64,000 nt of DNA from Promethearchaeota archaeon (GCA_029838195.1 JALGVJ010000003.1:1-64000), one strand, 5' to 3'; numbered from the stretch's first letter, positions 19,030-35,464 are shown. Translations and numbers: made by a program. The notes: a model not told the origin generated them from the letters alone.

Positions 19030-20439
19030 ATGAGAGAGTTCATAAGAATGTCAAAAAAATCTACCGGCATTTTTCAAAAATTGTCCTATGGAATCGGTTC
19101 TATCGCAGATACGGGCTCATATTCAATCGTGAGCACATTTTTACTTTTTTTTTTAATAGACGTGGTTTATCTTAATGCTTGGTTAGCATCATTAGTATAC
19201 ATGATAGCCTATGGTATTTGGAATGCTATAAATGACCCAATCGTGGGTGTCTTATCCGATCGTACTCATACACGATGGGGTCGAAGAAAACCATGGATAA
19301 TGATTGGAGCTCCGCTTTCTTTACTTTTTTACATTTTAATGTGGGGTCCACCAACAAAAATTAGCAATACGGAAATCTTCATTTTCATGCTCCTCGTAGT
19401 AATAGGTTATGAGTTTGCATATAGCATGGCCGCAGTTACATGGTTTGCTGTATTTCCTGAAATATGGATTACTGTAGAAGAACGAAGCGAAATTGTGATT
19501 TATAGGCAAGTATTTGCCGTATTTGGAGGTGCTCTGGCAGTGGGATTGTTTCCCGTCATTCAAGTGCATCTTTCTGAGATTCTTGAAGAAAAAATTGGAT
19601 GGACGTTGGCCGGAGCAATCTTGGGAACGATATTTACTATTTGCTTTTTAATTTCATTGTTGGGGATTAAAGAGCGAAAAGAATATTCTTTGGACCAGCA
19701 AATGCCCTTGCTGATCTCTATTAAAACCACCTTTAAAAACAAGACACTTTTAACGTACATGATCATTGATTTGATGACTTGGAGCATGTTTGGGTGGATG
19801 AGTGCCATGTCTCCATTCTTTGTTACTCATTCACTGGGCTTAGGTTTAGATGTAGTTGCTTTAATAATGCTTCCAAACATGATCACTACGATTCTTTTTT
19901 TTGCACCTTGGAGAAAAATATATATTCGTTTCGGTTGTAAAAAGACATTAGCTCTAAGTTGCATTTTACAAGCGGGAGTTTATTTGATGGTTTTTACCAT
20001 AAAGGATATTATAGGGCTTGTCTTATGGGGGTTCTTCATGGGAATGTGCACAGCTGGAATTCTAGTAGCACGAGAAGTCATGATGGGTGATGTTGTAGAT
20101 GAAGATGAGCTTAAAACCGGGATAAGAAGGGAGGGATCTTATTTTGGATTCATGATAATGGTCGAAAAAATGTCATTAGTGGTAATCGGTCTTTTTACTG
20201 CTATCTTGTTAAGCGTATTCATCGGTTATGATCCCCAATTACCTGATCCTCCATACATGGATATCGCATTAAGGATCGGAATGGTAATAATGATTGGAAT
20301 ATTTACTATCATCTTGTTAATGTTTTTAAATTTTTATCCTTTAAGCAAAGAAAAAGTTGCCGAAATGCAAGAACAATTGGAAATAATACATGAAAAAAAA
20401 AAAGAACAATTAATGAAAAATACAAATACAAATCTCTAA
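19030..20439 (+). CDS. GPH-family MFS sugar:cation symporter
   Basis: WNAINDPIVG.LSDRT.TRWGRRKPW; DVVDEDELKTG.RREG. Confidence 0.92.
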   Translation: MREFIRMSKKSTGIFQKLSYGIGSIADTGSYSIVSTFLLFFLIDVVYLNAWLASLVYMIAYGIWNAINDPIVGVLSDRTHTRWGRRKPWIMIGAPLSLLFYILMWGPPTKISNTEIFIFMLLVVIGYEFAYSMAAVTWFAVFPEIWITVEERSEIVIYRQVFAVFGGALAVGLFPVIQVHLSEILEEKIGWTLAGAILGTIFTICFLISLLGIKERKEYSLDQQMPLLISIKTTFKNKTLLTYMIIDLMTWSMFGWMSAMSPFFVTHSLGLGLDVVALIMLPNMITTILFFAPWRKIYIRFGCKKTLALSCILQAGVYLMVFTIKDIIGLVLWGFFMGMCTAGILVAREVMMGDVVDEDELKTGIRREGSYFGFMIMVEKMSLVVIGLFTAILLSVFIGYDPQLPDPPYMDIALRIGMVIMIGIFTIILLMFLNFYPLSKEKVAEMQEQLEIIHEKKKEQLMKNTNTNL

Positions 20440-20821: not shown

Positions 20822-22360
20822 GTGGTAGGAATGGAGGAATACATTCTTTCTTTAGATGCAGGTACCACTGCTTCAAAAATATCATTATTTGATACAAGAG
20901 GTAATTTAATTAGCCTATCAACACAAGAGTACGAGTTATTAACACCAACCGCACTTACAGTAGAAATTTCGGCAGAAAAATTCTGGGAAGCTTTTAAATT
21001 GGGAACACGGGAGGTGTTGAAACATTCAAATATCGATCCGGGTAGCATTAAGGCGTTTAGTTTATCGGCACAAGGGGAAACATTAATTATAATTGACAAG
21101 GAAGGAAAACCATTACGTAATGCAATTTCATGGATGGATAATCGCGCTCAAGAACAAGCAGAAATTCTTTCTAAAGAATTTCCAAATGATGAAGTATATA
21201 AAATAACAGGTCAAGTGTCTATTGTTCCCACTTGGCCTGCGGCAAAACTTCTTTGGATAAAACAGAATGAACCGAAAATATTTGAGAGAATAGAGAAAGT
21301 ATTATTAGTAGAAGATTATTTAATATGGAAACTAACGGGGCAATTTGCTTGTGAAGGATCCTTGATCTGTTCGACCGTTTACTGGAACATTACAACAGAA
21401 AAATGGTGGGATGAAATGTTAGAATTTTTAGGCATTTCACCCGCGCAATTACCAGAAATAAGACATTCCGGTGAGGTTATTGGAAACATTACAGCAAATG
21501 CGGCAAGAGAATTAGGGCTTACTACTAATTTAATTGTTTCAATGGGAGCACTTGATCAAGCATGCGGAACCATCGGAGTTGGAAATGTCAAGCCAGGTAT
21601 ATTTACGGAAAATACAGGAGCTGCATTAGCGATATGTGCGACTCAAGATAAAAACACGCCTACTTTCGATAAACAACGGAGAATTCCCGTTCATTATCAT
21701 GGAATACCTAAACGATACATGTTTCACACCTTTACAACTGGGGGAATGGTTCTACGATGGTATAGAGATAAATTCTGTCAGGAAATTATAAATGTTGCCA
21801 AGGAGAAAGGAATCGATGCTTACAAATTAATTGATGAGATGGTTAGAGAAATTCCTCCGGGAAGCGATGGATTGGTGATGTTACCTCACTTACAAGGCGC
21901 CATGGCTCCAGAAGATAATCCAAATGCTAAAGGTGTCTTTTTTGGTTTTACATTGAAGCATGGAAAAGCTCATTTTGCCAGGGCGATAATGGAAGCAATT
22001 GCTTTTATTGTTCGGAGAAATTTAGATATAGTAGAGGATATTAATATAAAAGTTAATGAAATACGTGTCTTAGGAGGAGGCGCTCGAAGTGATATCTGGA
22101 ATCAAATTAAAGCAGATGTTACAGGAAAAACCTTGGTAAGAACAGTGAATGAAGAAGCAGCTTGTCTCGGAGCAGCCATATTTGCCGGTAAAGGAGCCGG
22201 CATATATTCGAGTATTGAAGATGCCGCAAGCCAAATGATATCCATAAAAAAAAAATATGAACCAAATAATTCCAATATGAAAATATATAGTAATGCATAT
22301 CAAAAATATATTAAACTATATGAAGATTTAATTGATTTATTTTCTTTAAGTAAATCTTAA
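20822..22360 (+). CDS. FGGY-family carbohydrate kinase (xylulokinase-like)
   Basis: LDAGTT, W.DNRA, DQA, GGGARS..WNQIKAD, LGAA. Confidence 0.92.
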   Translation: MVGMEEYILSLDAGTTASKISLFDTRGNLISLSTQEYELLTPTALTVEISAEKFWEAFKLGTREVLKHSNIDPGSIKAFSLSAQGETLIIIDKEGKPLRNAISWMDNRAQEQAEILSKEFPNDEVYKITGQVSIVPTWPAAKLLWIKQNEPKIFERIEKVLLVEDYLIWKLTGQFACEGSLICSTVYWNITTEKWWDEMLEFLGISPAQLPEIRHSGEVIGNITANAARELGLTTNLIVSMGALDQACGTIGVGNVKPGIFTENTGAALAICATQDKNTPTFDKQRRIPVHYHGIPKRYMFHTFTTGGMVLRWYRDKFCQEIINVAKEKGIDAYKLIDEMVREIPPGSDGLVMLPHLQGAMAPEDNPNAKGVFFGFTLKHGKAHFARAIMEAIAFIVRRNLDIVEDINIKVNEIRVLGGGARSDIWNQIKADVTGKTLVRTVNEEAACLGAAIFAGKGAGIYSSIEDAASQMISIKKKYEPNNSNMKIYSNAYQKYIKLYEDLIDLFSLSKS

Positions 22361-22996
22361 GCAAATTTTATTCTTAATAATATTTTTTTTTTCTTTATAT
22401 CATGCCTCATTCTTTAAAATCTTCCGAATTTACACCTTAAACAACAAAAACTTTTTTATTTTAATATCAAGTATCATTTAATTAATATAATTAAGGACTT
22501 TTAAGTACAAACAAATAACTGATCAGAAAAGTATTCATTTAATTCATTCAATATTCTCATGCGAATATTTTCAAGAGTGCGCATCCCGCATTGGGTTTTA
22601 TACAAGGTATTCATCAATTTATTGCTCGACTCGTTAAACACCTTAATGGAAGGAGAAAAGGCACGCCGAGGGAAAAGCTCATGAAAATGTTGGAATCGAA
22701 ACACGTTTTCCTCATTGTTTAGTAAAGTCAATATAGCATTTTTTAACCAAGGATGCATTCCGGGTTTTAACAAGCCCAAAAGGAATTTTGGCAAATAAAA
22801 TCTTTTTTCTTTACGTTTAAAATTAAAGGAAATACCTTTTCTCCGGCAAATTCACAGCAAAATGTTCTGTTTTTTTCTCTCCTTAAAAGGATGTGATCTT
22901 TAAGTGTAGCGAACAAAAAAATTTGAATGAATATTAACTAATATAATCAATATATTAAATCGTATCAGTTTAAGGAGATTATTTTATGAAAAACCG

Positions 22997-23311
22997 TTAA
23001 TTTTGTTCCTCTAAGATTCTTTTGATATCCTCAAAATCTAACGCAATAATATTATTTAAAATTAATTTTTCCTTTTGCGTGAAACTCTTTGCTATTACTC
23101 CAAAATATTCTATTCAACAATTCCGTTCCCATTCTATTAATTATGCTTTTCTTTTGAGTTCTTCAATAATTTTCCTTGTTTTCTGAAAGGTAGATTAGCC
23201 CATTTGAATTCAAAAAAAGTAATCTCTTTCGCCTTTTCATTTATCGTAAGGATATCTATTTCATCCTTCTTGAAATCTGTCTCTCTTTCTATTAACAAAA
23301 TTACTAATCAT
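22997..23311 (-). pseudogene. Internally deleted archaeal ATPase (DUF234-type)
   Basis: N-terminus MISNFVNRK.. is joined almost directly to the C-terminal EIDILTIN....ITFFEFKW...EELKRKA* region; internal stops. Confidence 0.7.
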
Positions 23312-23335
23312 GATTAGTACTAATCTAAATTAGTA
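23302..23335. promoter_or_regulatory. Tandem palindromic operator overlapping the start codon of the DUF234 pseudogene
   Basis: Perfect palindrome tactaatcatgattagta (23302-23319) and overlapping near-copy tactaatctaaattagta (23318-23335). Confidence 0.55.
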
Positions 23336-23546
23336 TAAATTCTTTTTAAATTTTGAATTTATATTAAATTCTTATATAATCTAGTAAATTTTAAACTCTA
23401 TTGAAATAATAATTAAAGGAAAAAGATAATGCTTAACTTTATCGATTTGCGTTGTCATGGAACTCGATCCCTCTCATTTCTATTATTTGAAATATTGTTA
23501 TTTTTCCTAAAATTTTCATCTACTTAGTTTTATTTTAAAATATTTC

Positions 23547-24332
23547 TCAAATAGTAGGAAATACTATCGTCCATTTATTTTCATTCATTAAATTCGCCGT
23601 TCTACCCATTAACTCAACTGCTAATTCTCTATCAAGATTTCTTAAGATTGAATGATTATCTATTTCATCATATAACTCATATCCATTATCTATTAAATTA
23701 ATTCCATATCCAAAAAAAGTTTTTAATCCCTTGTCTAAAGAACTTATTTTTCTGCCTTCAAAAATATAATATGCTAATGCTTCGAGTTGATATGATTTAA
23801 AACATTTTCCATTAATATAATTCCATTTTTTTAATAGCTTTATCAGTTTTGTTCCTAATCCGTTATTCTTTTTATTTAAATCATTTAATTTTTCCTCATC
23901 TAACTCTGGATTAATAACAATTGTATTTCCACCTTCTGGAATTCTGAGAAAACCACGATTCAATTCAATTGCCGGAATTAAGTCTAATTCTATATCATTA
24001 TTAAAAAGGCACGGAATCGCATGTAGATAAGGTGGGCCACGAGCAATTTCAAAAGGTACGTAATATTCTTCTAAATCTCTTAATTTATATTCGAAATTAC
24101 TTAATAAATTATATTCTTCAAAGTATCCCTTAAAATACACGTCTACATCAAAATAGTTTCTGATGCATGTGTATCTATCAAAACTGCCTCCATATCTATA
24201 TCCATAACAATTTGGTTCAACTTGAGAAAATTCATTGTGAATCTTTTTTATACAATTTTTAATATATTTCTTTCTTTCGGGAGTTATTGAAATTTTTATT
24301 AAAATTTTTTCTAAATACTGATTTGGATTCAT
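23547..24332 (-). CDS. SMODS/CD-NTase (cGAS/DncV/OAS-like) nucleotidyltransferase
   Basis: Pol-beta motif GGSFDRYT.IR...DVDV, third acidic residue in LDLIPA, helical lobe LIKLLKKWN and KSY.LE.L, terminal W..VFP; no CCA-enzyme body or tail. Confidence 0.82.
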   Translation of the reverse strand: MNPNQYLEKILIKISITPERKKYIKNCIKKIHNEFSQVEPNCYGYRYGGSFDRYTCIRNYFDVDVYFKGYFEEYNLLSNFEYKLRDLEEYYVPFEIARGPPYLHAIPCLFNNDIELDLIPAIELNRGFLRIPEGGNTIVINPELDEEKLNDLNKKNNGLGTKLIKLLKKWNYINGKCFKSYQLEALAYYIFEGRKISSLDKGLKTFFGYGINLIDNGYELYDEIDNHSILRNLDRELAVELMGRTANLMNENKWTIVFPTI

Positions 24333-24355
24333 TTTTTAAAGCCTTCCAACCTTAT

Positions 24356-25075
24356 TTAATCGAATAACTTAATCTCTCCTTCTATTTTCATTTTAGAAAG
24401 AGAATATAATCGATAATTCTTTTTCTCGTCCATGGCGCAATAAACACTCGGAATGAGATATTTATTAGATAATTCTAATAACTTTAGGGTATATAATTTA
24501 CTTAAAGGGGTTAAATCTAAAATAATATCGGCATTTTTCATTTCTTTGCTAATTATGCTTTCTACTTCTTTAAAAAATTTAGATCCAAGATTTCGGTAAT
24601 CCTCATAATTATATGAAAAAGTCTTATGAATTTCAATTAATTTTTCAGATTCTTGCTTTTCTTTTCTTTTTGCCTCGGCGTCTGGAGATGTAAAACAAAT
24701 AATTTTTGAAATGGGATAACGTTTCTCTTTTAATAATTTGAATACCCTATCAGGAACTTTATAACCCTCTTTTAATACACCATATCCAGTAATGAGAGTG
24801 AAATTTTTTATTTCATAGCCTAAAATTTGACGTACTTGTTGCCGAGCAGTAGAATTTAACAAAATATTATTTATTTTAACATTTCCGACTTGTTGAAGGG
24901 TAATTCTCTGAATTAAACCCAAATCTTCTAATCGATTCAAGTGATAATGCAAATTAGAGCCGGTAGTTTTCAATTTTCGCTGTAATTCTTTTTGCTGGTA
25001 TTCTCTCTTAAATAATAATCTTAATATTTTTATTTGCGTTTCTGGAAAATCCTTTTTAATTAAATTTTTTTTCAT
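24356..25075 (-). CDS. N-terminal wHTH + C-terminal CARF-like domain transcriptional regulator
   Basis: aa ~10-85 form a wHTH (QKELQRKL..TGSNLHYHLNRLEDLGLI). Rossmann-like strands follow: FTLITGYG, KIICFTS, IILDLTPLSK (cf. CARF D.T.G.K), SVY. Confidence 0.75.
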   Translation of the reverse strand: MKKNLIKKDFPETQIKILRLLFKREYQQKELQRKLKTTGSNLHYHLNRLEDLGLIQRITLQQVGNVKINNILLNSTARQQVRQILGYEIKNFTLITGYGVLKEGYKVPDRVFKLLKEKRYPISKIICFTSPDAEAKRKEKQESEKLIEIHKTFSYNYEDYRNLGSKFFKEVESIISKEMKNADIILDLTPLSKLYTLKLLELSNKYLIPSVYCAMDEKKNYRLYSLSKMKIEGEIKLFD

Positions 25076-25112
25076 TACGTTTATATGATTTTTAAAAATT
25101 ATAATATTTTAC

Positions 25113-25151
25113 TTTAACGGCCGTTAAATGATAGACCGAACGGCGGTTAAA
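25113..25151. promoter_or_regulatory. Tandem operator in the wHTH-CARF / viperin divergent promoter
   Basis: Perfect 16-bp palindrome tttaacggccgttaaa (25113-25128) and 12/16 copy ccgaacggcggttaaa (25136-25151): GC-rich cores in an AT-rich spacer. Confidence 0.75.
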
Positions 25152-25186
25152 CAAGGATATTTAAGGGAAATAAAAATCTATTACAT

Positions 25187-25999
25187 ATGAAAAAACACGT
25201 GAATTTTCATTTTTGGCCTTATTGTAAATTTAAATGCAAGTATTGTTTTTTAAAATTTGAATACGTGAAAAGACCTTTATCCAAGAAAGATTGTATGAGT
25301 ATCCTCTTAGCGTTATGGGAATTCGGAGCTGAGAAAATTAATTTCGTAGGGGGAGAGCCTACTTTATGCCCATTCTTAGGAGAATTAATTGCTTACGCCA
25401 AGAATTTAGGCTTCACGACCAGTATCGTTTCAAATGGAACGGTAATTACACCTTCTTTCTTAAGGAAGTATGGAAAAAATATCGATTGGATTGGATTAAG
25501 CCTTGATTCCGGAAATGAAGAGACTCAAAAAGCCCTTGGACGTGGAAATGGCAACTACGTCCAAAAAACGATTAATAAAAGTCTCATGATCAAAAAATCA
25601 GGAATTAAATTAAAGATCAATACCGTTATAACTCGTTTGAATGTTAATGAGGACATGTCTGCTGTTATTAATAAAATCGCTCCTGATAGATGGAAAGTTT
25701 TCCAAATGCTCATCATTAAGGGACAAAATGATAATGAAGCAAAAAATCTCACCATTTCCTCATCTGAATTCAAGAATTTTACTAAAAGATATGCTGATTT
25801 TAATCCAATAGCTGAGAATAATGACGCAATGGTAGATTCTTATATCATGATCGACCCTTTAGGTAGATTCTTCCAAAACTCAGGAGGCACCTATAGTTAT
25901 AGCATGCCAATTTTACAAGTGGGCGTGTTTAATGCTTTTGACCAAATCACGTTTAATCATGATAAATTTATAAAAAGAGGCGGAATCTATTCTTTCTAA
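25187..25999 (+). CDS. Viperin (RSAD2-like antiviral radical SAM ddhNTP synthase)
   Basis: VNFH...CKFKCKYCF, KINFVGGEPTL, TSIVSNG, LKINTVI, RWKVFQML, ENNDAMVDSY.MIDP.GRF, KFIKRGGIY: the viperin motifs in order. Confidence 0.93.
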   Translation: MKKHVNFHFWPYCKFKCKYCFLKFEYVKRPLSKKDCMSILLALWEFGAEKINFVGGEPTLCPFLGELIAYAKNLGFTTSIVSNGTVITPSFLRKYGKNIDWIGLSLDSGNEETQKALGRGNGNYVQKTINKSLMIKKSGIKLKINTVITRLNVNEDMSAVINKIAPDRWKVFQMLIIKGQNDNEAKNLTISSSEFKNFTKRYADFNPIAENNDAMVDSYIMIDPLGRFFQNSGGTYSYSMPILQVGVFNAFDQITFNHDKFIKRGGIYSF

Positions 26000-26055
26000 T
26001 CATGAATCGTTTCCATTTACTTTATCTGAAATTATAATTCAAGGAGGTGAAAAAA

Positions 26056-26178
26056 ATGGGAAAAAGTAAGATGAATAAGTCAGCAGCTCGGAGAATTCAA
26101 TCACACGCAGATAAAACGGGAAAAAATCAAGGCTTCAAATCCAGAGCTATGCGCGCTGCTGACAAAAATAAAAAATAA
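26056..26178 (+). CDS. 40-aa basic peptide (AARRIQSHAD...FKSRA..AA), below the ORF-track cutoff
   Basis: Strong SD AGGAGGTGA at 26042-26050; MGKSKMNKSAARRIQSHADKTGKNQGFKSRAMRAADKNKK*; followed by a T-tract. Confidence 0.75.
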   Translation: MGKSKMNKSAARRIQSHADKTGKNQGFKSRAMRAADKNKK

Positions 26179-26210
26179 TTATGACTAAAAAATCAAGATT
26201 GAAAATCAAA

Positions 26211-26230
26211 TTTCTCTTTTTTTTCTTTTT
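26211..26230 (+). terminator. Oligo-T archaeal terminator candidate for the viperin-peptide transcript
   Basis: tttctcttttttttcttttt shortly after the peptide stop. Confidence 0.45.
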
Positions 26231-26365
26231 AATCCTAATACTTTACATCAATACCTGAAATAATCAATATAAATGATTATAAATTAACTAAAGTTCAACA
26301 AGTCCTACTAATAATTTATTAATATTTAGAAGTTTTTTTCTGATATAATTCATTTAAATGAATTT

Positions 26366-26630
26366 TTATTTGTTTTGCGCAATTGCTTTAGCCATTAATG
26401 GTAGTACAGCATTACCTATTTGTTTTAATATTGAACTTTTAGTTCCCTTGAAAATAAAAGTATCATCAAATGATTGTAACGCCGCCAATTCCCGTGGAGT
26501 CAGTACTCTATTAAATTTATAGTGTATGAAAACACTTCCGTGGTTCGCCTTAACGGTTCTGGCAGGTTTATCAGGATCTAATCTCCACCACGCATCACTA
26601 TAATTTTCATATAAATTTTCTCCGAATTTT
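26366..26630 (-). pseudogene. C-terminal remnant of a C5-cytosine DNA methyltransferase
   Basis: WRLDPDKPARTV..NHG..FIH....RVLTPRELAALQSFDD.F.F.G......KQIGNAV: TRD end plus motifs IX/X; no N-terminal half. Confidence 0.85.
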
Positions 26631-26952
26631 ATGGCAAAGAATGTTTGGGAGATATTTACTTTGAAGATTTTGAAGAGGGGAGCAAATATCTGGCAGAATC
26701 TGATTTAATGAGCTATGAAGATTATCTAAAAGAAAATGGCAAACACCTGGGAATATAGAAACTAATCCTAATCTTAGATAATCTCTTAAATTATTATTAG
26801 TTTCAGCGCTATAAAAAATCTTTATAATACGTTCTTTCTTTTAAAAAGCATTTCCCATTGTCTAACATTATTCTAATTCTATCTTCTTCTATGATCAGGT
26901 AATTTCCTCCAATAATAGAAATCCCGACATAAAAGGAAATGCTTGTAATAAT

Positions 26953-27750
26953 TTATTCCTCCGTCGTGAATTGAATCAATTCTTTTTGAAAGAGATATTT
27001 TAAAACAAAAGCTATGCCGATATATGTTATTTTAATTTTTTTTTCTATTTTTGTTTCTTGATTAACCATTGTTTCCAATACGGATATTTTTTTTAATTTC
27101 TTGATAAATCCATTAATAGAACCCCGAGTAATTTCTTCATTTTTTATTTTTTTCCCATAGGCTTTTCTTAGATCTTCAATGGATTCAAAATTTCTAATAC
27201 AAGTTAAAATTTTATCAAAAGACTCTTGATTTTTCATTATTTCTACAATATCTCTATAGCTTGTAAAAAATAACTCTAAAAATTCATATTGCTTTTCTGT
27301 GGGAGTTGTTAAAGGGATTCTCACTAAGTTCATATTATAGTTAATCCCAACGGCCTCTTTTCCTTTATACTTGAAATCCCCATGAATTATATCCGTATTG
27401 GTAATTAAACATCCTAAATAACACCAGATCACCATAAATCTTAAGCCTCCCGAAACATTTACCGAAATATTCTTAAATCCAAGTAATCGCTGTTTATAGA
27501 TAGTGAGGGCAAGTTCCGCCACGGGTCTAGTTTGCTCGGTAAAACTATACTCCACTATTTCCGTATTAATTAATCTTTCTTGATAATAATTTTTTAATTC
27601 TTGAATGACTCTTATTTTTTCTTCCGTACCTGAAATTTTTTCACGTTCTTTAATAAGAATTAATTTGTCCACTATTTCCTTATCTATAGAGAGTTTTAAC
27701 CTATTCGGATGGAGACCTACCAGGACGATTAGGCATTTTTTATTTTCCAA
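26953..27750 (-). CDS. Csa3-like CARF + wHTH transcriptional regulator
   Basis: CLIVLVGL (strand 1), KLILI, ISVNVSGGLR (Csa3-type N.SGG.R), C-terminal wHTH 'ITRGSINGFIKKL...IKITYIG'; TTG start. Confidence 0.8.
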   Translation of the reverse strand: MENKKCLIVLVGLHPNRLKLSIDKEIVDKLILIKEREKISGTEEKIRVIQELKNYYQERLINTEIVEYSFTEQTRPVAELALTIYKQRLLGFKNISVNVSGGLRFMVIWCYLGCLITNTDIIHGDFKYKGKEAVGINYNMNLVRIPLTTPTEKQYEFLELFFTSYRDIVEIMKNQESFDKILTCIRNFESIEDLRKAYGKKIKNEEITRGSINGFIKKLKKISVLETMVNQETKIEKKIKITYIGIAFVLKYLFQKELIQFTTEE

Positions 27751-27810
27751 TTAATATCTCCCTTTAATTTTTTAAAAAATGTATATTTTATATAGTAATT
27801 ATAGATTAAT

Positions 27811-27848
27811 AGATTTGTGCATACATCTTTTATATTATATGTGCATAT
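27811..27848. promoter_or_regulatory. Paired TGTGCATA boxes in the CARF-wHTH / nurA divergent spacer
   Basis: tgtgcata at 27816 and 27840 (24 bp apart); the first lies within the imperfect palindrome agatttgtgcatacatct. Confidence 0.5.
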
Positions 27849-28000
27849 GAAAAAATATTTAAATATGTTTTATTTATAATTATTTATTTAGGAGAAAATC
27901 TTAAATAAATAAGGAATTAAGGCATAATTTTGTAAAAATTTTTAATAGTTAATTTATGATTTATTAATTACAAAAATGCAAAGCGTTTTACCTCAAAAAA

Positions 28001-29383
28001 ATGCCAAATTTTATCGATCTATTTGGATCACAAATAGATAATAAGAAAAGGACTTTTATCCAGTATTTAACGAAAGGAAAAGAATTGAAATTTTTAGAGA
28101 AAGATTATGAGAAACAATTCAAAAGGTTTTTTATTCCTATAAAAACTAATACATCAATTCCAGAAAATTTTGAAGCAGTGGCGGTTGATGCGAGCGGAAA
28201 AAAAAGAGAATTTTCCAACGGAACTTATTTCTTAATATATAGGGCTTCTGGAATTCAAAATAATGGCAATATTAAAAGAATGTTAGATACGGATATTTTT
28301 ACTCTTTCAGAAGCGAGTACAGAAATAAATCGATATTTCGGTAGAAAATTGGAGCATATTGAATTGAAAGTCCTCGAATCATATTTAAATGAGATAGAAA
28401 AAACTAATCAGTTACGAGTTGGTTTTATTGATGGTTCCATTTATAATCGCTTAATGAGTCGGATTTTTGAATTTTCGGTGGAGGGTGATGAAAAATTTAT
28501 GTTGAATTATATTGAAAAAGTTTTTGAAGTTTTAACAAAAGCTAAAGAGAAAAATGTTGTGTTAATTGGTGTAAGCAAGGATTCCAGGGAAAGTTTTTTC
28601 AGAAATGCTTTACTTGATGAAATTTATTATGAGGAAAGAGACAAATTAAAGAAATCGGGAAAACTTACTCAAAAAGAACTCTTATTAATTGAAGATGTAA
28701 TCAAAGAGATTGATGTTTATAATGAAGATAAAGTCAGAAGATTTAAGGAATTAGTCAAAAAAAATCCAATACTTCTAAATAAAATGTATCTAATTTATAA
28801 CGAGTATCTTAATCTAAGAACTGATGGTGAAATTATGTATCGTTTTGCTAAAGATCCTGGTTATACATTTCCAATCGAAAAAGGATTAGGAAGAAGGGAG
28901 CAAGTTAATATCTTTAAACAAATGGTAAATAATACGGATAACTATATTTCAAGTAAATTTAGAAGATATCTTTCTAATCTTGACGATAAAGAGAAAAAAA
29001 AGTTCCTAATAGAAGCAAGGAGAGTTATACAAAAATTTAATAATATTCCTACTTTCATTTCATACCATATATTGCCCGATATTAGAGATAATCCCATTAA
29101 AATAGATGTTCCAGGTTGGTATTTTAAAACTTATCACAAACTGATAAACTTTCCTCACGTGTGTTTTTATAATCAAACGGATCCGATGATAGAGAAAATA
29201 TTATTAGTTAATATGAAATTATACTGTGGATTAAATAATTATAATTTACTTCTCTCTGCTGCCCATAATGATGCTGTTTTAAGAGAGAAAACATATATGG
29301 ATGTATATGAGCAATATTTACAAGATAAATTGGAATTAGTATTACCTTATAGAAGAAGAACAAAAAGACAAATATATGGATGA
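28001..29383 (+). CDS. nurA: NurA 5'-3' nuclease
   Basis: AVDAS, FIDGS, IGVSKDS, Y..LL..AH..A; overlaps the herA ORF start. Confidence 0.85.
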   Translation: MPNFIDLFGSQIDNKKRTFIQYLTKGKELKFLEKDYEKQFKRFFIPIKTNTSIPENFEAVAVDASGKKREFSNGTYFLIYRASGIQNNGNIKRMLDTDIFTLSEASTEINRYFGRKLEHIELKVLESYLNEIEKTNQLRVGFIDGSIYNRLMSRIFEFSVEGDEKFMLNYIEKVFEVLTKAKEKNVVLIGVSKDSRESFFRNALLDEIYYEERDKLKKSGKLTQKELLLIEDVIKEIDVYNEDKVRRFKELVKKNPILLNKMYLIYNEYLNLRTDGEIMYRFAKDPGYTFPIEKGLGRREQVNIFKQMVNNTDNYISSKFRRYLSNLDDKEKKKFLIEARRVIQKFNNIPTFISYHILPDIRDNPIKIDVPGWYFKTYHKLINFPHVCFYNQTDPMIEKILLVNMKLYCGLNNYNLLLSAAHNDAVLREKTYMDVYEQYLQDKLELVLPYRRRTKRQIYG

Positions 29384-31002
29384 TGATAATGATAAGAGAG
29401 AATTTTATTGGATATATTATCGGGGAGGCTTCTACTATGGAGTTTGAATTTGTCACGGATGAAAAGTTAGCTCCCCTAAAATGGGATTATTTAATGGTGG
29501 AATCTTTTGAAAGAAGGGAGGGAAAAGAATTTAAAGTGGAAATATTAGCACAAGTATCTGAAATCTTTGCTTTTAGCAAAAATATCACTATAGATACTCT
29601 TCCTTCTATGGTAAAGAAACAAATTGAACAAAATATTGTCAATCCCAAAATATATGGAAGAGCAAAGGTCTTGGGTTATATTGATAAGAATACTAAGAAC
29701 AAATTGATAAGAATTCCACGAAGAAATAGACTCCCCGGTGAAATGGTTTTTAGAGCACCTAATTCTTTATTAAGTGAATTCTTTAGTAAAAGAGAAGATG
29801 AAGGGCTTGAGATAGGAACCCTTTTAACAAATAGTCAAGTAAAGTTATTATTAGACCCGAATGGTCTCAATAGACATCTTGCCATTATAGCTCAAACTGG
29901 TGCAGGTAAATCATATACAACTGGAGTAATCATAGAGGAACTCTTTAAATTAGGGGGATCTATATTAATATTGGATCCTCACTCTGATTACGTTTTTCTA
30001 AGTCAAAAAGCAAAAGATTATTCTTTAGTGGAGAGGAGTGAATATATAAGAGTTTTTCGTAATCCCAATAGTACGGGAAGATATTCAAGTTCCTCTATAA
30101 TTAATCTACATCATTATGAAATAAATTTTGCAAACTTAGATGAGGAGGATATTGCGGAGATCTGTTTCATACCTGGGAATGCAGTCAGAATTAAGGAGAC
30201 AATAAGGTCTGCGATCGAAAAGATTGACGAAGACAATTATTCTCCTGAAAAATTGATCGAGCAATTAGAGGATATGGAAAAAAAAGCCCCCAATAGCAAG
30301 GAGCGCAGTATTATACGGAGTACAATTATAAGAGTAAGGCAGCTACTAAGATATAAGGTATTTGGAAATAATGATGTTCCTATAGAGGATATTATAAAAC
30401 CTTGGACGATCTCAGTGTTAGATCTTTCTGGATTAACAGATAAATCAATGAATTATATCGCAGCCCATATCTTACAAGAGACATATTCATATATCCTAAA
30501 TAAGGTGGATTTTCCCATATTCATCATTATTGAGGAAGCTCATAGATTTATCCCTCCTATCTCCAAAAAACAAACTTTTTGTAGTCGAATAATTAATACC
30601 ATAGCCGCGGAAGGAAGAAAATTTGGTTTATTTTTGATATTGATAACCCAAAGACCTTCCAAATTAGATCCTAACAGTCTTTCTCAATGCAATAGTCAAA
30701 TCATCATGAAAATTACTAATCCTGAAGATCAACAAGCAATTTTAAAATCGAGTGAGCGAGCTACTGAAGAATTATTGAATAATCTTCCGGCACTTTCGCC
30801 AGGTGAGGCCATCATTACTGGGGAAATCGTAAAAGTCCCAGTCATGGTTTCTATTAGAGAAAGAATTACTCGAGAAGGTGGAGCGGATATTAATATATTA
30901 GAAAAACTAAGACAAGCCAGAGAAGGATATGAAATAGAAAAAGAATCTGAGGAAGAAGAAAAATCAAGAATTAATCCTCGTAAAAATCCTTTCATGAGAT
31001 GA
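29380..31002 (+). CDS. herA: HerA bipolar DNA helicase/translocase
   Basis: HAS barrel N-terminus, RHLAIIAQTGAGKS, LDPH.DY, IEEAH.F, EGRKFG, TQRPS, SQC. Confidence 0.92.
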   Translation: MMIMIRENFIGYIIGEASTMEFEFVTDEKLAPLKWDYLMVESFERREGKEFKVEILAQVSEIFAFSKNITIDTLPSMVKKQIEQNIVNPKIYGRAKVLGYIDKNTKNKLIRIPRRNRLPGEMVFRAPNSLLSEFFSKREDEGLEIGTLLTNSQVKLLLDPNGLNRHLAIIAQTGAGKSYTTGVIIEELFKLGGSILILDPHSDYVFLSQKAKDYSLVERSEYIRVFRNPNSTGRYSSSSIINLHHYEINFANLDEEDIAEICFIPGNAVRIKETIRSAIEKIDEDNYSPEKLIEQLEDMEKKAPNSKERSIIRSTIIRVRQLLRYKVFGNNDVPIEDIIKPWTISVLDLSGLTDKSMNYIAAHILQETYSYILNKVDFPIFIIIEEAHRFIPPISKKQTFCSRIINTIAAEGRKFGLFLILITQRPSKLDPNSLSQCNSQIIMKITNPEDQQAILKSSERATEELLNNLPALSPGEAIITGEIVKVPVMVSIRERITREGGADINILEKLRQAREGYEIEKESEEEEKSRINPRKNPFMR

Positions 31003-32201
31003 GTTTTAAAATGGTTCAAATTTTACACACGGCTGACTTTCATTTAGATCCCAAAATGACTAACTTTCTTCACAGAGATCAAGAACGCAGAGATGATTTT
31101 CAGAAAAATTTTGATGAGATAATCAATTTTTCCCTAAAAGAAAGACCAGATATATTATTAATTTCGGGAGATCTTTTTGATAGCATTAATCCCAGAAATC
31201 CCGTTAGAAATCACGTGATTTCGCAGTTTAAAAGAATCCATTCAAAAAACATTAAAGCGTTTGTTATAGGCGGCAATCATGATATGCCTAGATCTATAGA
31301 AAATGCTCTCAGTCCAATTTCGATATTAAACACGATTGAATACATAGATTTCATCCAACCAGAAGGTCAATTCATCAGTAAAAGGGAGCTAAATATAAAT
31401 AATCTAAAAATAAATATCTTTGGTGAATCTTATGATGTTTTGAATACCAGAATGAGAGATCCATTGGATGAATTGAGTTTTGGAAATCTCGATGCGGATC
31501 TTAACATATTTATGGTTCATGGGAGTATAGGCTTATTTAGATATCGATATCCGGGAGATTATATCATTAAAGAAATTAATATTCCTGAAAAAATAGATTA
31601 TGTTGCAGCAGGTCATCTCCACGACCATATTGAAAAGGAAAGATACAATCCAAATTTAGGATCGAGCACTCTTATGGTTTATCCTGGTAGCATCGAGTTT
31701 TTATCTTTTAATGAAAATTTAAAAAAAGTGAAAGGATTTATGTTTTTAGAATATGATAAAGAAGGTCTAATTAATAAGGAGTTCATTAAATTGGAAACAC
31801 GTCCTATAGAGCAAATACCAATTTCGATTAATACCAATCAAGAAAATATTTATCAAACAATAATTCAAGAGATTGAGAATTTTTTAAATGATCGAAAAAT
31901 TCTAAAAGTCATCCTCGAAGGAAAGATTAAAGTTGACCAGATCGCATCAATTAAATCTTCAAAATTAATTAATTATGGAGATGAAAATTGCTTTAAATTC
32001 TTCTTAGATTCCTATTCAAAACTTGATTTTGAAACCACTGAATTAATTTTACCTGATAAAGAGAGAGCAAGCCCTATAGAAATTTTTTCACAATTTGTAG
32101 ATTCGTTAATCGCTAGGGAAGAAAATGAGAATTTTAAAAAAATTCTAATTGATGCCAAAAAAATAAGCTTAGAAAAGCTTGAAAAATTTGGGGTGAAATA
32201 A
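30999..32201 (+). CDS. mre11: Mre11/SbcD nuclease
   Basis: HTADFH, GDLFD, GNHD, HG, GHLH, YPGS.E. Confidence 0.92.
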   Translation: MSFKMVQILHTADFHLDPKMTNFLHRDQERRDDFQKNFDEIINFSLKERPDILLISGDLFDSINPRNPVRNHVISQFKRIHSKNIKAFVIGGNHDMPRSIENALSPISILNTIEYIDFIQPEGQFISKRELNINNLKINIFGESYDVLNTRMRDPLDELSFGNLDADLNIFMVHGSIGLFRYRYPGDYIIKEINIPEKIDYVAAGHLHDHIEKERYNPNLGSSTLMVYPGSIEFLSFNENLKKVKGFMFLEYDKEGLINKEFIKLETRPIEQIPISINTNQENIYQTIIQEIENFLNDRKILKVILEGKIKVDQIASIKSSKLINYGDENCFKFFLDSYSKLDFETTELILPDKERASPIEIFSQFVDSLIAREENENFKKILIDAKKISLEKLEKFGVK

Positions 32202-35200
32202 AAATAGAATTAAAATCTTTAAAATTAAGAAATTTCATGGTAATTAAAAAGGCTACTATTAATTTCATTCATGGGATAATGGCGATCATAGGGCCAAATG
32301 AAGCAGGAAAATCCACTATTATAGAGGGCGTCTTATTCAGCTTATTCGGCAAACGAGCATTTAGAGATTATGAACATTTAATCCATTTTGAATCAAATCA
32401 TGCTAAAATTTCCCTAATCTTTTCCGTTAGGGATAATATTTATCGAGTAAATCGAGAATTAAGAAAGAGCAAATCAGGTTCAACAAGTCAAATAAATGCT
32501 GTACTTTCAGAGTTAACCAATGGAGAAGAGCATTTTATTATAGCTAAAGGGGTATCAAACGTTGATTCTCAAATTGAACGAATCATTGGATTTTCTTATA
32601 ATGAACTCACGGCTTCAAATATTATCGCTCAGAAGAAATTAAACAAGATAAGTAAAATGACACCTCAAGAATGGAAGGAATTATTTAATGAATTTCTAAA
32701 CCTAAAAGGATTCGGAGATAGTATTTCAGAATTAAAAGAAGAGAAAAAAGAAAAACAAAATCAATTAAATAATGATGAGATTAGATTAGATGAATTGAAA
32801 AATAAAAAGGATGATTATTGGTCTCGATTCAAGGAATTAATTAGATTATCTAAAAATCATTATCGTAAAGCTAGAACTCACAGAAAACTCTCTAAAGAAG
32901 TAGAAATTTTATCAAAATATTTGAAAATTGTAAAAGATTACATAGAAAAAAGAGATCTAAAAATGAGACTTCAAGATGAGATGGCCTCTAAAGAGAAATT
33001 TTTAAACCAGTATAATGAACGTTTAGCTGAGATCGAGGCCTTAGAAGAAGAAACAGCACAATTAAAACATCAATTGGAAATTTATAAGGGATTAAATGAT
33101 GATGAAAAAAATTTTCTTAATATCAAAAACCATTTTGAGAATTATCAAAAAACACTAAAAAGAATAGAAGAATTAAAAGAAAAATTAAGATATATTATAG
33201 AATTAGAGGGAAAACTAGAAAATAAGAAAGAAAAATTTATAGAATACAAAGATATGCCTAATCAATTGAAACATTTCAGGGATTTAGAATCCTCATACAA
33301 ATTTTTAGAAGTTAATGTAAAGGAGAGAAATTCGCTTGAAGAAGAATTGAATAAGGTTATTACAGCCGAGAAAGAAGTAGCGAATTTAAAAAAAGATTTA
33401 TTGAAGGTAGAAGAAGATCTCAGTTATAAAAATGATTATATAGAAGCTGAAAATAAATTTCGTGAATTTAAAGCCAAATATGATCAAATAAAATATGAAA
33501 GAGATAAAAAAGAAGAATTAAAATTTGAGATTACCAAAATTAAGAAAACTTGTCCGAAAGAAACTCCCGAAGAGCTTGGAAATTTAAAAGAATATAAGGA
33601 TAGTTTGGAAAATCTTGTTAAAAAAGGTTTATTAAATTATATCACCCACTCATTTAAGTGGAATCTCCCCATTCTGATTGGATTTATAATAATTAGCTTA
33701 ATACCTATTTTTTTTGGTCGAATATTATATTCATTCATAGGAATAGGAGCATTTGCCCTATTTTTTATCTATTTATATTATAAATACCTTTCGCTTCAAG
33801 CATTAGTTAAAAAATTGGAAAATTTGATTTTTTCATTAAAAAAACTACAAAAAATAAAAGAAGAATTAAAATCAGTTGAGAAAAGCCTGGAAAAAAAATA
33901 TATTTCAATAGCTGAAATAATTAAAAGTTTATCAGAATATTATAGTAGTTCTTTTCAAGCGACGGAGGGCCTAAAAGAACAAGTATATTCATTAAATCTC
34001 TATTTTCAAGAAATTAATAAGAAATTGAATAGTTCAGAAGCTCGAATGGAAAATTTAAATAAAAAAATCAAGGAATTAAAAAAGCTCATAAAAAAGAAAC
34101 CAAAATTAGAGTATGATTTAGAAAACTCAATCAAGAATATTCATGAGGATAAAAAGCAATTGGATGCCATTTTTTCTGATGGTTTAGAAGAAAAGTATAT
34201 CAAAGAAAGGATTGACAAAATCTACTATGATGATTACATTGATTTTTCTATAGTAAAGCAACAGTTAAAGCAGATAGAAAATATTATTCTTAAAGATTTT
34301 GATCAATATAATATTTTAAAGAGAGAGATTGAAGATTTAAAAACTAAAACTAAAGATAAATCAACAGTGATTGAGAATTTAAAAAAAAAACAAAAAGAAA
34401 AACAAACTATATTTAATACTTTAGTTGAATTAATTGAAAGAATTAACCAAAAATATATAAATTCCATTACAAGTGAATTAACTATACATGAACAAGTAGA
34501 AAAAGTAATTCCTTTTGAAAATTCCATTAAAAAGCTTAATTCTTTTATCCAAGAAGATAAAAACGCACGTGACAAATTAGAAGCCCAAATAAATACAAAT
34601 AGCGCTCAGATCAATAAAAAACCGGAAGTAATTAAAAACATTAACAATATTAAAGGAGAGATACAAGAGATAATTTCCAATATAAAATCTATAGTTTTTC
34701 CAATAATCCCTGAAGAGATTTCAAATATCTTTGATAAAAATAAACCTAAAGATTGTCAGAATACCTTGGAAAATGAAATTATTGACTTAGATGAAAAAAG
34801 AAATCAAATTTATGGTGAAATGAAATCTATAAATACATCTAGAACAAAGATTCGTAATTATCTGAAAGATAATGAGCAAATTATTCATGATTTTTTTAAA
34901 ATGAAAAAAAAAGTTGAGAATTTAGAAAGAGAAATAAAAATATATAGTAAATCCATAGATTTGCTTGAACAAGTTAATAGAAAGATTTGGGATCTCCAAA
35001 TGCCCTATATCTATAGTTATATCAAGGAATTTTTACCTAAAATCACAATGGGGAGATATAGAAATATGATCATAACGCAGCCCGAATCACGTAGGAAGAA
35101 AAAATATGAATTTAAAGTATTTGAGGAAACTATAGAAACATATATAGATAAAAAATATTTATCAGGGGGTACTGATGATCAAATTTTACTAGTTATACGT

Positions 35201-35464
35201 GTTGCTGTTGCCATGTCTTTATTACCGCAATCTAAAGGACATTATCCTAAATTCATCTTTATTGACGAAGCATTCGCTTCAAGCGATGCTCAAAGAAGGA
35301 TGGAAATCTTAAATTGGTTAAAAAAAGATCTCTCCTCCATTTTTACACAGATCATTATCATCTCGCATCAAAAAGAAATTATTGAAGAAATACCCTATTA
35401 TTATAAACTCAATAGAGGAGATTTAATTGATAAATTTTTACCTGATCGAGAAATCATAAATTAA
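32198..35464 (+). CDS. rad50: Rad50/SbcC-like SMC ATPase with central transmembrane hairpin
   Basis: Walker A GPNEAGKS, Q-loop IAQ, long coiled coils, LSGG, FIDEAF, ISH; hydrophobic hairpin at ~33659-33790. The start is extended from ATG 32237 to ATA 32198 to include IKIELKSLKLRNF. Confidence 0.85.
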   Translation: MKIELKSLKLRNFMVIKKATINFIHGIMAIIGPNEAGKSTIIEGVLFSLFGKRAFRDYEHLIHFESNHAKISLIFSVRDNIYRVNRELRKSKSGSTSQINAVLSELTNGEEHFIIAKGVSNVDSQIERIIGFSYNELTASNIIAQKKLNKISKMTPQEWKELFNEFLNLKGFGDSISELKEEKKEKQNQLNNDEIRLDELKNKKDDYWSRFKELIRLSKNHYRKARTHRKLSKEVEILSKYLKIVKDYIEKRDLKMRLQDEMASKEKFLNQYNERLAEIEALEEETAQLKHQLEIYKGLNDDEKNFLNIKNHFENYQKTLKRIEELKEKLRYIIELEGKLENKKEKFIEYKDMPNQLKHFRDLESSYKFLEVNVKERNSLEEELNKVITAEKEVANLKKDLLKVEEDLSYKNDYIEAENKFREFKAKYDQIKYERDKKEELKFEITKIKKTCPKETPEELGNLKEYKDSLENLVKKGLLNYITHSFKWNLPILIGFIIISLIPIFFGRILYSFIGIGAFALFFIYLYYKYLSLQALVKKLENLIFSLKKLQKIKEELKSVEKSLEKKYISIAEIIKSLSEYYSSSFQATEGLKEQVYSLNLYFQEINKKLNSSEARMENLNKKIKELKKLIKKKPKLEYDLENSIKNIHEDKKQLDAIFSDGLEEKYIKERIDKIYYDDYIDFSIVKQQLKQIENIILKDFDQYNILKREIEDLKTKTKDKSTVIENLKKKQKEKQTIFNTLVELIERINQKYINSITSELTIHEQVEKVIPFENSIKKLNSFIQEDKNARDKLEAQINTNSAQINKKPEVIKNINNIKGEIQEIISNIKSIVFPIIPEEISNIFDKNKPKDCQNTLENEIIDLDEKRNQIYGEMKSINTSRTKIRNYLKDNEQIIHDFFKMKKKVENLEREIKIYSKSIDLLEQVNRKIWDLQMPYIYSYIKEFLPKITMGRYRNMIITQPESRRKKKYEFKVFEETIETYIDKKYLSGGTDDQILLVIRVAVAMSLLPQSKGHYPKFIFIDEAFASSDAQRRMEILNWLKKDLSSIFTQIIIISHQKEIIEEIPYYYKLNRGDLIDKFLPDREIIN

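Follow-up and report, generated by a model that had tools for sequence, protein, structure and literature searches.

Can a cyclic-nucleotide signal switch on an antiviral gene in an archaeon and, if so, through which receptor? The question is raised by a 2.7-kb module (positions 23,547 to 26,230) in a stretch of 64,000 nucleotides from a Promethearchaeota archaeon (GCA_029838195.1, JALGVJ010000003.1:1-64000), the whole of which is called the window here. The module codes for a regulator with a winged helix-turn-helix (wHTH) and a CARF domain, a cGAS/DncV-like nucleotidyltransferase (CD-NTase, below also NTase), a prokaryotic viperin and a peptide of 40 amino acids. To our knowledge, CD-NTase pathways, that is, those of the cyclic oligonucleotide-based antiphage signalling systems (CBASS), end in a cell-killing effector, and prokaryotic viperins are regarded as enzymes that work alone and are presumably expressed constitutively. 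From the structural predictions and the comparison of related loci reported here, we conclude that the wHTH-CARF protein is, very probably, the local regulator of the viperin and the 40-aa peptide. A separate question is where the ligand of its CARF domain comes from, and whether the adjacent NTase makes it.

The regulator is a winged-helix protein with a CARF domain

The regulator consists of an ArsR-type wHTH domain (residues ~1-85) followed by a CARF domain (~89-230). Its sequence matches HTH_5 (7e-8, an ArsR/MarR-type winged helix) and, over residues 18-217, the PADLOC model CARF_m5 (6e-15). In the AlphaFold2 model (pLDDT 89.8), residues 1-75 align to wHTH proteins of the ArsR family (ArsR, CzrA, NolR; Z ~10) and residues 89-230 to the CARF domains of Can2, Csm6, Cdn1, Card1, Cad1 and ring nucleases (Z 11-13). 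The best structural matches of the CARF domain are Can2 (8bao; Z 12.9, rmsd 2.2, 119 residues aligned) and Csm6 (6tug; Z 12.5). A CARF identity of the C-terminal domain had been proposed in an earlier reading of the window made from its sequence alone (the sequence-only reading), and both the fold and the profile match bear it out.

Two elements of the domain are invariant in 27 homologues, the glycine-rich loop G97-x-G99 after the first CARF strand and the signature D187-x-T189-x-x-x-K193 after beta-4, which corresponds to the pattern [DN]x[ST]xxx[RK]. CARF-family domains have been solved with cyclic tri-, tetra- and hexa-adenylate (cA3, cA4, cA6) bound, and examples are among the structural matches of the regulator. 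Judged by the fold matches, the modeled domain would by default be expected to respond to a cyclic oligonucleotide, and this expectation is probably correct. The prediction of a regulator homodimer scored 0.27, with the mark at 0.42, which speaks neither for a dimer nor against one.

Two candidate operators lie between putative back-to-back promoters

Regulator and viperin genes diverge from a spacer of 111 bp (25076-25186), in which the sequence-only reading had noticed palindromic sites; both the spacer and the sites are confirmed. The two 16-bp candidate operators, sites A and B, are listed in Table 1 together with the promoter elements. Their number by itself says little, as the window holds 3 matches to the 16-mer and 1.05 are expected, which is not significant. 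The significance of the pair comes instead from its fixed position across loci. When 436 kb of related loci were searched, allowing up to 3 mismatches, 68 of the 72 matches were found at -52±2 or -75±2 from the regulator start codon.

Aligned by eye, the spacers follow one common plan. On the way from the divergent start codon to the regulator ATG, ~25-30 nt lead to a TATA-like box, site A follows this box after 4-5 nt, and ~7 nt separate sites A and B. A second TATA-like box comes 5-8 nt after site B, and a further ~30 nt lead to the ATG. The counterpart of the viperin TATA-like box at the same place in sibling loci is cctttaaaaata, and TTTATAA or TTTTAAA stands 5-8 nt after site B, ~30 nt before the regulator ATG. 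Sites A and B are thus placed between two back-to-back promoters, each abutting the side of the transcription factor B recognition element (BRE) of one TATA box. Such a geometry is compatible with a dimeric wHTH protein that would act on both transcripts, be it as an activator or as a repressor. The distance of ~26 nt between TATA-like box and ATG implies that the viperin mRNA may be leaderless or nearly so. In a genome-wide search for further operator copies, 6 matches were found on the two strands and 3 for a control pattern, and the only operator-like ones were those of the window's own site (both strands), so that at this stringency the search gave no sign of a wider regulon.

The same DNA-binding head is also found with other partners. 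wHTH paralogues in seven loci (L018, L019, L021, L049, L051, L054 and L056 in our numbering) have 44-52% identity to the regulator over residues 1-130, and most of them keep operator site B, at -54. In these proteins (359-762 aa) CBM96-like and zinc-ribbon domains replace the CARF domain, so that the same head carries another sensor or output.

Viperin is the recurrent divergent neighbour of the regulator

A total of 58 related loci was taken from three kinds of source, namely assemblies, GTDB genomes and JGI metagenomes. Those whose regulators were at least 95% identical were merged, which left 36 non-redundant loci. The divergent neighbour of the regulator is viperin or its remnant in 19 of them: an intact gene in 11, a gene cut by a contig end in 2 and a decayed gene, frameshifted or reduced to a short remnant, in 6. 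The 40-aa peptide alone occupies the divergent position in five loci, and the order viperin then peptide is seen in the window and in L033/L034. Orthologues of the peptide with 71-80% identity are divergent from the regulator in L007, L010, L011, L014 and L022 and come after viperin in L033/L034. Control of viperin by the regulator is well supported, because the operators keep fixed positions and viperin recurs as the divergent gene.

Downstream of the regulator, on the same strand, the genes are more varied. The CD-NTase described below takes this place in seven loci and a TPR protein of ~1040 aa in eight; the remaining loci have a HEPN-like protein, a STAND NTPase, a large helicase or unknown proteins. 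The TPR protein matches the PADLOC model PDLC02907, which we take to be PADLOC's viperin-associated TPR protein solely because its number adjoins those of the pVip models. ESM Atlas look-ups with the HEPN-like protein and with residues 1-650 of the TPR protein gave scores of at most 0.86, or generic TPR. On the viperin side, eight loci have viperin followed by a superfamily 1 helicase of ~790 aa (AAA_11; PADLOC MkoA 5e-11) and mostly then by an unknown protein of ~390 aa. These operons, which combine viperin with a Mokosh-like gene on the minus strand after viperin, are found in L025, L030, L039, L041 and L046 and also in L024, L027 and L042.

The regulator family is rare and patchy, with full-length copies in 4 of 301 genomes sampled from the phylum; a fifth copy, in genome G213, contains two stop codons. 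By title, the records that hold a regulator are from Promethearchaeota or Lokiarchaeia, except for one contig that was binned as Patescibacteria, and this distribution among metagenome-assembled genomes (MAGs) agrees with the probable Asgard origin that had been proposed for the window. The exception, L015 (JANBVM010000002.1, labelled 'Patescibacteria group bacterium'), carries an Asgard regulator that is apparently split, a TPR gene and a viperin remnant, and is probably a misbinned Asgard contig.

Viperin and the 40-aa peptide

The viperin is an intact, regular member of the prokaryotic viperin family. It matches NF038283 over positions 2-280 of 281 (1.2e-88; 297 bits, cut-off 180), PADLOC pVip (1.6e-85) and Radical_SAM (7e-23), and the CxxxCxxC motif of the radical-SAM cluster is present as C13, C17 and C20. 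No second viperin accompanies it in the 4.5-Mb host genome. Asgard viperins were reported to be active against phage in E. coli (PMC11291487). From its family, synthesis of 3'-deoxy-3',4'-didehydro-nucleoside triphosphates (ddhNTPs) and antiviral activity are predicted for this one as well.

The sequence-only reading had placed a small peptide gene after the intact viperin; both genes are there, and its coordinates hold except for the start of the peptide, for which ATG at 26056 is likelier than GTG at 26047. The peptide family comprises at least 84 protein clusters, and all named sources are Asgard (Loki, Odin and other MAGs). No match to Pfam was found at E values up to 0.1. An SMP domain was considered and rejected, as it is given by one UniRef label only and Pfam did not confirm it. 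The peptide is also found apart from both regulator and operator, again in defence islands: at L059:4001-4123 it adjoins a STAND/SLFN-helicase gene and PglZ, and at L061:4001-4114 a PLD-helicase and an MmeI-like methyltransferase.

The nucleotidyltransferase is a short, divergent CD-NTase

By profile and model, the NTase is a short (261 aa), divergent and catalytically intact CD-NTase that is nearest to the CdnC/CdnD branch. It matches the PADLOC oligonucleotide-cyclase model at 2.7e-23, and a profile made of nine orthologues finds CdnD of P. aeruginosa (6p8u) in the PDB at 4.7e-7, against 0.17 for CCA-adding enzymes. With the AlphaFold2 model (pLDDT 90.1), the top 50 Foldseek matches in the PDB are all CD-NTases or cGAS (TMq 0.64-0.79). 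The best are CdnD (6p8u, TMq 0.79), CdnC, CdnB, CdnG, CdnE, cGAS and DncV, with probability 1.00, and the matches take in the C-terminal helical lobe, which minimal nucleotidyltransferases (MNTs) lack. The catalytic motifs, the G[GS] loop (GGS), D62-V-D64 and E115-L-D117, are kept in the 9 orthologues. A clade among CD-NTases, which the sequence-only reading had put beside OAS and CCA-adding enzymes as candidates, is therefore the assignment that fold and profile favour; the CCA-adding enzyme is ruled out by both rankings. CdnC and CdnD, the nearest solved relatives, make cyclic tri-AMP. Among the neighbours of distant relatives of the NTase in six other Asgard genomes, no recognisable CBASS effector was found; a match to the candidate system PDC-S15 lies beside one of these relatives and a HerA/mad8-like ATPase beside another.

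Where does the CARF ligand come from?

The NTase is plausible as the source of the ligand because it forms one operon with the regulator, because NTase-linked regulators are phylogenetically coherent and because there is no other receptor in the window. All close NTase orthologues with a readable context lie directly downstream of a regulator; they come from 7 non-redundant loci, which include genome G279 of GTDB. In the maximum-likelihood tree of regulators, 7/7 NTase-linked proteins fall in one group of 12 rows (support 89/87), and a separate clade of 20 rows (99/97) contains 6/7 TPR-linked rows and all viperin-helicase-linked rows. As to other receptors, no adjacent CBASS effector (SAVED, STING, phospholipase, nuclease, transmembrane, TIR and similar) was found in the open reading frames (ORFs) that flank the NTase. 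Searches of the flanking ORFs with Pfam, NCBIfam and PADLOC gave no Cap2/Cap3, HORMA/Trip13, transmembrane, phospholipase, TIR or nuclease effector, in keeping with the sequence-only reading, which had seen none. The AT-rich 1.2 kb downstream of the NTase (22361-23546) has short ORFs only (97, 53 and 54 aa), with no family matches. When proteins of the sibling loci (HEPN-like, AbiV, TPR and others) were compared with 22301-23600 by tblastn, with E values of up to 50 allowed, there was noise only and no decayed effector. An adjacent effector with a nucleotide-sensor domain having not been found, the CARF regulator is the sole candidate receptor in the locus. In our estimate it is a serious possibility, though somewhat short of probable, that the CARF ligand is made by the adjacent NTase.

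A number of findings weigh against this role of the NTase. It accompanies the regulator in only 7/36 loci, and the trio of intact NTase, regulator and viperin is seen in this window only; the linkage of all three suggested by the sequence-only reading is thus recurrent for regulator and viperin but not for the NTase. In L009 the regulator is followed by the NTase and an AbiV-HEPN gene, and what diverges from it is a 50-residue remnant of the viperin N-terminus. The NTase step is drawn from one intact and one decayed locus. A HEPN-like or AbiV-HEPN gene comes after the NTase in four sibling loci (L007, L009, L010, L011), so that the NTase there may serve another partner. The CARF signature residues are the same in NTase-linked and NTase-less regulators, which points to one shared ligand whose supply does not depend on this NTase. 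Two Cas10 genes are present in the host, and Cas10 is present in 3/4 other regulator-bearing genomes. Genome G159 (99% complete, same family) has a divergent viperin-regulator pair at C68:7852-9475, with neither a Cas10 palm-domain match nor an NTase of this family. The NTase itself stays below the curated cut-offs, by far for NCBIfam CBASS_cyclase_b (2.2e-13; 50 bits, cut-off 200) and by little for Pfam SMODS (25.8 bits, cut-off 26.5), and its activation on infection is, as it stands, a proposal.

Much of this evidence bears on the main rival explanation, according to which the regulator controls viperin in the same way and the ligand arrives from elsewhere, either as a cyclic oligoadenylate of type III CRISPR-Cas, as for Csa3, or as another diffusible alarm. 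The Cas10-type palm domains of the host (G000 C79:9847-10230 and C48:18215-18709, in ORFs of 911 and 946 aa) indicate that two type III CRISPR-Cas systems, from which cyclic oligoadenylates could come, are probably present in it. The NTase would then be one of several interchangeable cargo genes of the regulator operon, whose downstream slot holds many unrelated defence genes (TPR, STAND, helicase, HEPN-like) and lacks the NTase in 29/36 loci. As such it would be a CBASS-like module that has lost a HEPN-type effector here and is kept under the regulator, as CBASS is under CapW or CapH/CapP. The invariant CARF residues, the Cas10 genes and the HEPN-like or AbiV genes behind the NTase all fit this explanation. 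However, HEPN-like genes also directly follow the regulator where there is no NTase (L014, L029, L044), and the version in L007 is a bare protein of 188 aa with no sensor domain, which makes these proteins unlike dedicated NTase receptors. The clustering of NTase-linked regulators in the tree, the want of Cas10 in G159, the intact catalytic residues of the NTase and the lack of any detectable effector remnant downstream of it in the window also speak against a ligand from elsewhere, and we regard that explanation as rather unlikely.

Does the NTase signal at all? It might instead nucleotidylate a protein or an RNA, like the MNT antitoxin of HEPN-MNT pairs or an enzyme of the CCA-adding type, and its adjacency to the regulator would then be incidental. 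One source labels the orthologue P0039 a CCA-adding enzyme, and both the HEPN-like gene that follows the NTase in four loci and the SMODS score under the cut-off could be cited in favour. The profile ranking and the fold ranking described above, the latter including the helical lobe absent from MNTs, point the other way, and no HEPN gene was found in the window; a non-signalling NTase is most improbable.

There is also the question whether the CARF domain senses a cyclic oligonucleotide. It might respond to RNA ends with 2',3'-cyclic phosphate, as the CARF domain of RtcR does, or to a nucleotide metabolite linked to the chemistry of viperin, and would thereby report RNA damage or stress on the nucleotide pool. 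HEPN RNases leave 2',3'-cyclic phosphate ends, and they recur in these loci; CARF_m5 is a minor, uncharacterised clade; and in G159 both Cas10 and this NTase are missing beside the regulator-viperin pair. Nevertheless, the domains that match best in structure are CARF domains that bind cyclic oligoadenylates, and a sensor of this kind would leave a catalytically intact, co-operonic CD-NTase with no role. We consider this explanation improbable.

A proposed circuit

The reading we favour, with the adjacent NTase as the source of the ligand, would work as follows. Dimers of the wHTH-CARF protein would bind the two 16-bp pseudo-palindromic operators, which have the half-sites TTTAAC/GTTAAA and are 23 bp apart, and would so control the transcript of viperin and the 40-aa peptide on one side and their own transcript, including the CD-NTase, on the other. 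When the cell is infected, a cyclic (or linear) oligonucleotide would be made by the CdnC/CdnD-like NTase; its binding to the CARF domain would change the occupancy of the operators and raise viperin expression, and viperin would make chain-terminating ddhNTPs. Since the NTase lies in the operon of the regulator itself, the signal could amplify itself. With a cell-killing effector absent, the output would be transcriptional and non-abortive.

The module could well be a small inducible defence unit built on a ligand-responsive transcription factor, although we stop short of calling this likely. The sequence-only reading had proposed that the messenger receptor is a transcription factor that switches on viperin. 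Its pairing of regulator and viperin stands, as does the lack of a suicide effector, whereas the NTase as the source of the CARF ligand is not established, given its seven loci, the two Cas10 genes of the host and G159.

Layout of the locus and its surroundings

The module is flanked by genes of sugar utilisation on one side and by a nurA/herA/mre11/rad50 block on the other (Table 1). In the minus-strand pair the regulator gene comes first and the NTase gene follows after a gap of 23 bp, the arrangement of ORFs and gap that the sequence-only reading had described.

Table 1. Positions of the genes and sequence elements of the module and of its neighbours in the window
Feature	Position	Strand	Remarks
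MFS (major facilitator superfamily) transporter	19030-20439		Sugar-utilisation block
FGGY kinase	20822-22360		Sugar-utilisation block
CD-NTase (cGAS/DncV-like nucleotidyltransferase)	23547..24332	-	261 aa; second gene of regulator operon
Regulator, ArsR-type wHTH + CARF	24356..25075	-	239 aa
AT-rich TATA-like stretch	25090..25109	-	Putative regulator-NTase promoter
Operator site B	25113..25128		Candidate site; perfect 16-bp palindrome TTTAACGGCCGTTAAA; homologues at -52±2 from regulator ATG in nearly all loci
Operator site A	25136..25151		Candidate site; 13/16 copy of site B motif, 23 bp from B; ends 5 bp before viperin TATA box; homologues at -75±2 in most loci
TATA-like box ATATTTAA	25157..25164	+	Putative viperin promoter; ~26 nt before ATG
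Prokaryotic viperin (pVip), radical-SAM ddhNTP synthase family	25187..25999	+	270 aa
Basic peptide gene	26056..26178	+	40 aa; co-oriented, 56 bp after viperin; GGAGGTG ribosome-binding site
T-rich tract	26211..26229	+	Likely archaeal terminator for viperin-peptide transcript, judged from sequence
Csa3-like regulator proper	26953-27750	-	CARF N-terminal; PADLOC CARF3 2.5e-13, Pfam Csa3_N
nurA/herA/mre11/rad50 repair block	28001-35464

The Csa3-like gene is convergent to the viperin-peptide transcript and head-to-head with the repair block, whose first gene is nurA-like. Among the regulator loci, its homologues occur in L037 and, immediately behind the TPR gene, in L003/L004; in L017 and L037 another, different Csa3-like gene lies directly upstream of the wHTH-CARF regulator. 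The region was also scanned with Rfam and for tRNA genes, with no match and hence no clue to an integration site, and a repeat search of 22300-28100 returned AT-rich chance pairs only. A stretch of 28 nt at 22794-22821 is 86% identical to the region of the regulator start codon (25058-25085), with ATG changed to AAG and no operator beside it. It may be due to chance in AT-rich DNA or be what is left of a second copy of the 5' end of the regulator gene.

Relation to known systems

Csa3a and Csa3b are CARF-wHTH transcription factors of type I-A CRISPR loci in Sulfolobales (PMC8844856, PMC8699464, PMC5389559). The regulator resembles them in its combination of CARF and winged-helix domains, in the paired palindromic operators of the promoter and in the proposed control of defence genes by cyclic oligoadenylates. 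It differs in its domain order, which has the wHTH first and CARF second where Csa3 has CARF then wHTH, and in its best model, which is CARF_m5 and not CARF3/Csa3. The target is viperin with a small peptide instead of cas genes, the linked synthase is a CD-NTase instead of Cas10, and a Csa3-like protein proper is encoded by a separate gene 0.8 kb away. The reversed order and the different CARF clade argue that the regulator is not a member of the Csa3 family, though it may be Csa3-like in its working.

With CBASS, especially type III with CdnC/CdnD, the module shares the CD-NTase fold with intact catalytic acids, the setting in a defence island and a co-operonic nucleotide-sensor protein. In contrast to CBASS, no killing effector, HORMA/Trip13 or Cap2/Cap3 was found here, the only sensor is a transcription factor, and the NTase is short and below the cut-offs of the curated families. 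The adjacent effector is the defining feature of CBASS, and the module lacks it. The CBASS regulators CapW and CapH/CapP (PMC9122588, PMC11662680) are similar in that a wHTH regulator is encoded next to a CD-NTase and binds a palindrome in a shared promoter, binding that is predicted in the present case. In CapW a WYL domain serves to sense single-stranded DNA, and the effect is no more than de-repression of CBASS (PMC9122588, PMC11662680), whereas the module has a CARF domain as its sensor and another defence gene as its divergent target.

Known partners of viperins are nucleotide kinases and TPR proteins (PMC11291487; bioRxiv 10.1101/2023.09.13.557418; PMC12988326), and an archaea-only 'viperin + TPR' type of system has been mentioned (PMC12988326). 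A CARF regulator, operator or CD-NTase beside viperin is mentioned in none of these three sources, and no description of any of them in association with viperin was found in the literature searched. The sequence-only reading, which knew of no described system with this three-part arrangement, was correct to that extent. New here are the family of wHTH-CARF regulators with reversed domain order, the operator pair defined for it, and a CD-NTase that shares the regulator operon while no killing effector accompanies it.

The proposed logic also recalls the animal axis of cGAS, STING, interferon and viperin, in that a cGAS-like messenger would act on a receptor that switches transcription and viperin would be induced. 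The CARF factor, however, would act on the DNA itself, and STING, a kinase cascade and a cytokine would have no part in it; the comparison is an analogy of wiring only that implies no common descent.

Implications

Do Asgard archaea possess a complete non-abortive circuit, in which the messenger of a cGAS-like CD-NTase has a CARF transcription factor as its sole receptor, and this factor directly switches on viperin together with a small stress-type peptide? We put this forward tentatively, as possible and not yet probable. Even if the ligand came from elsewhere, there would be a new family of reversed-order regulators with a defined operator, and viperin would be placed in a CARF-controlled regulon of Asgard archaea, neither of which was found in the literature searched. 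The circuit is directly testable, as the operator is conserved, the parts are small and E. coli assays for Asgard viperins exist. If the circuit is real, it would be the first prokaryotic CD-NTase pathway with a transcriptional output and would mean that cyclic-nucleotide immunity in prokaryotes can drive gene induction and not suicide. Viperin would then be inducible in archaea, as it is in animals, and the lineage closest to eukaryotes would have a functional analogue of the induction that leads from cGAS to viperin.

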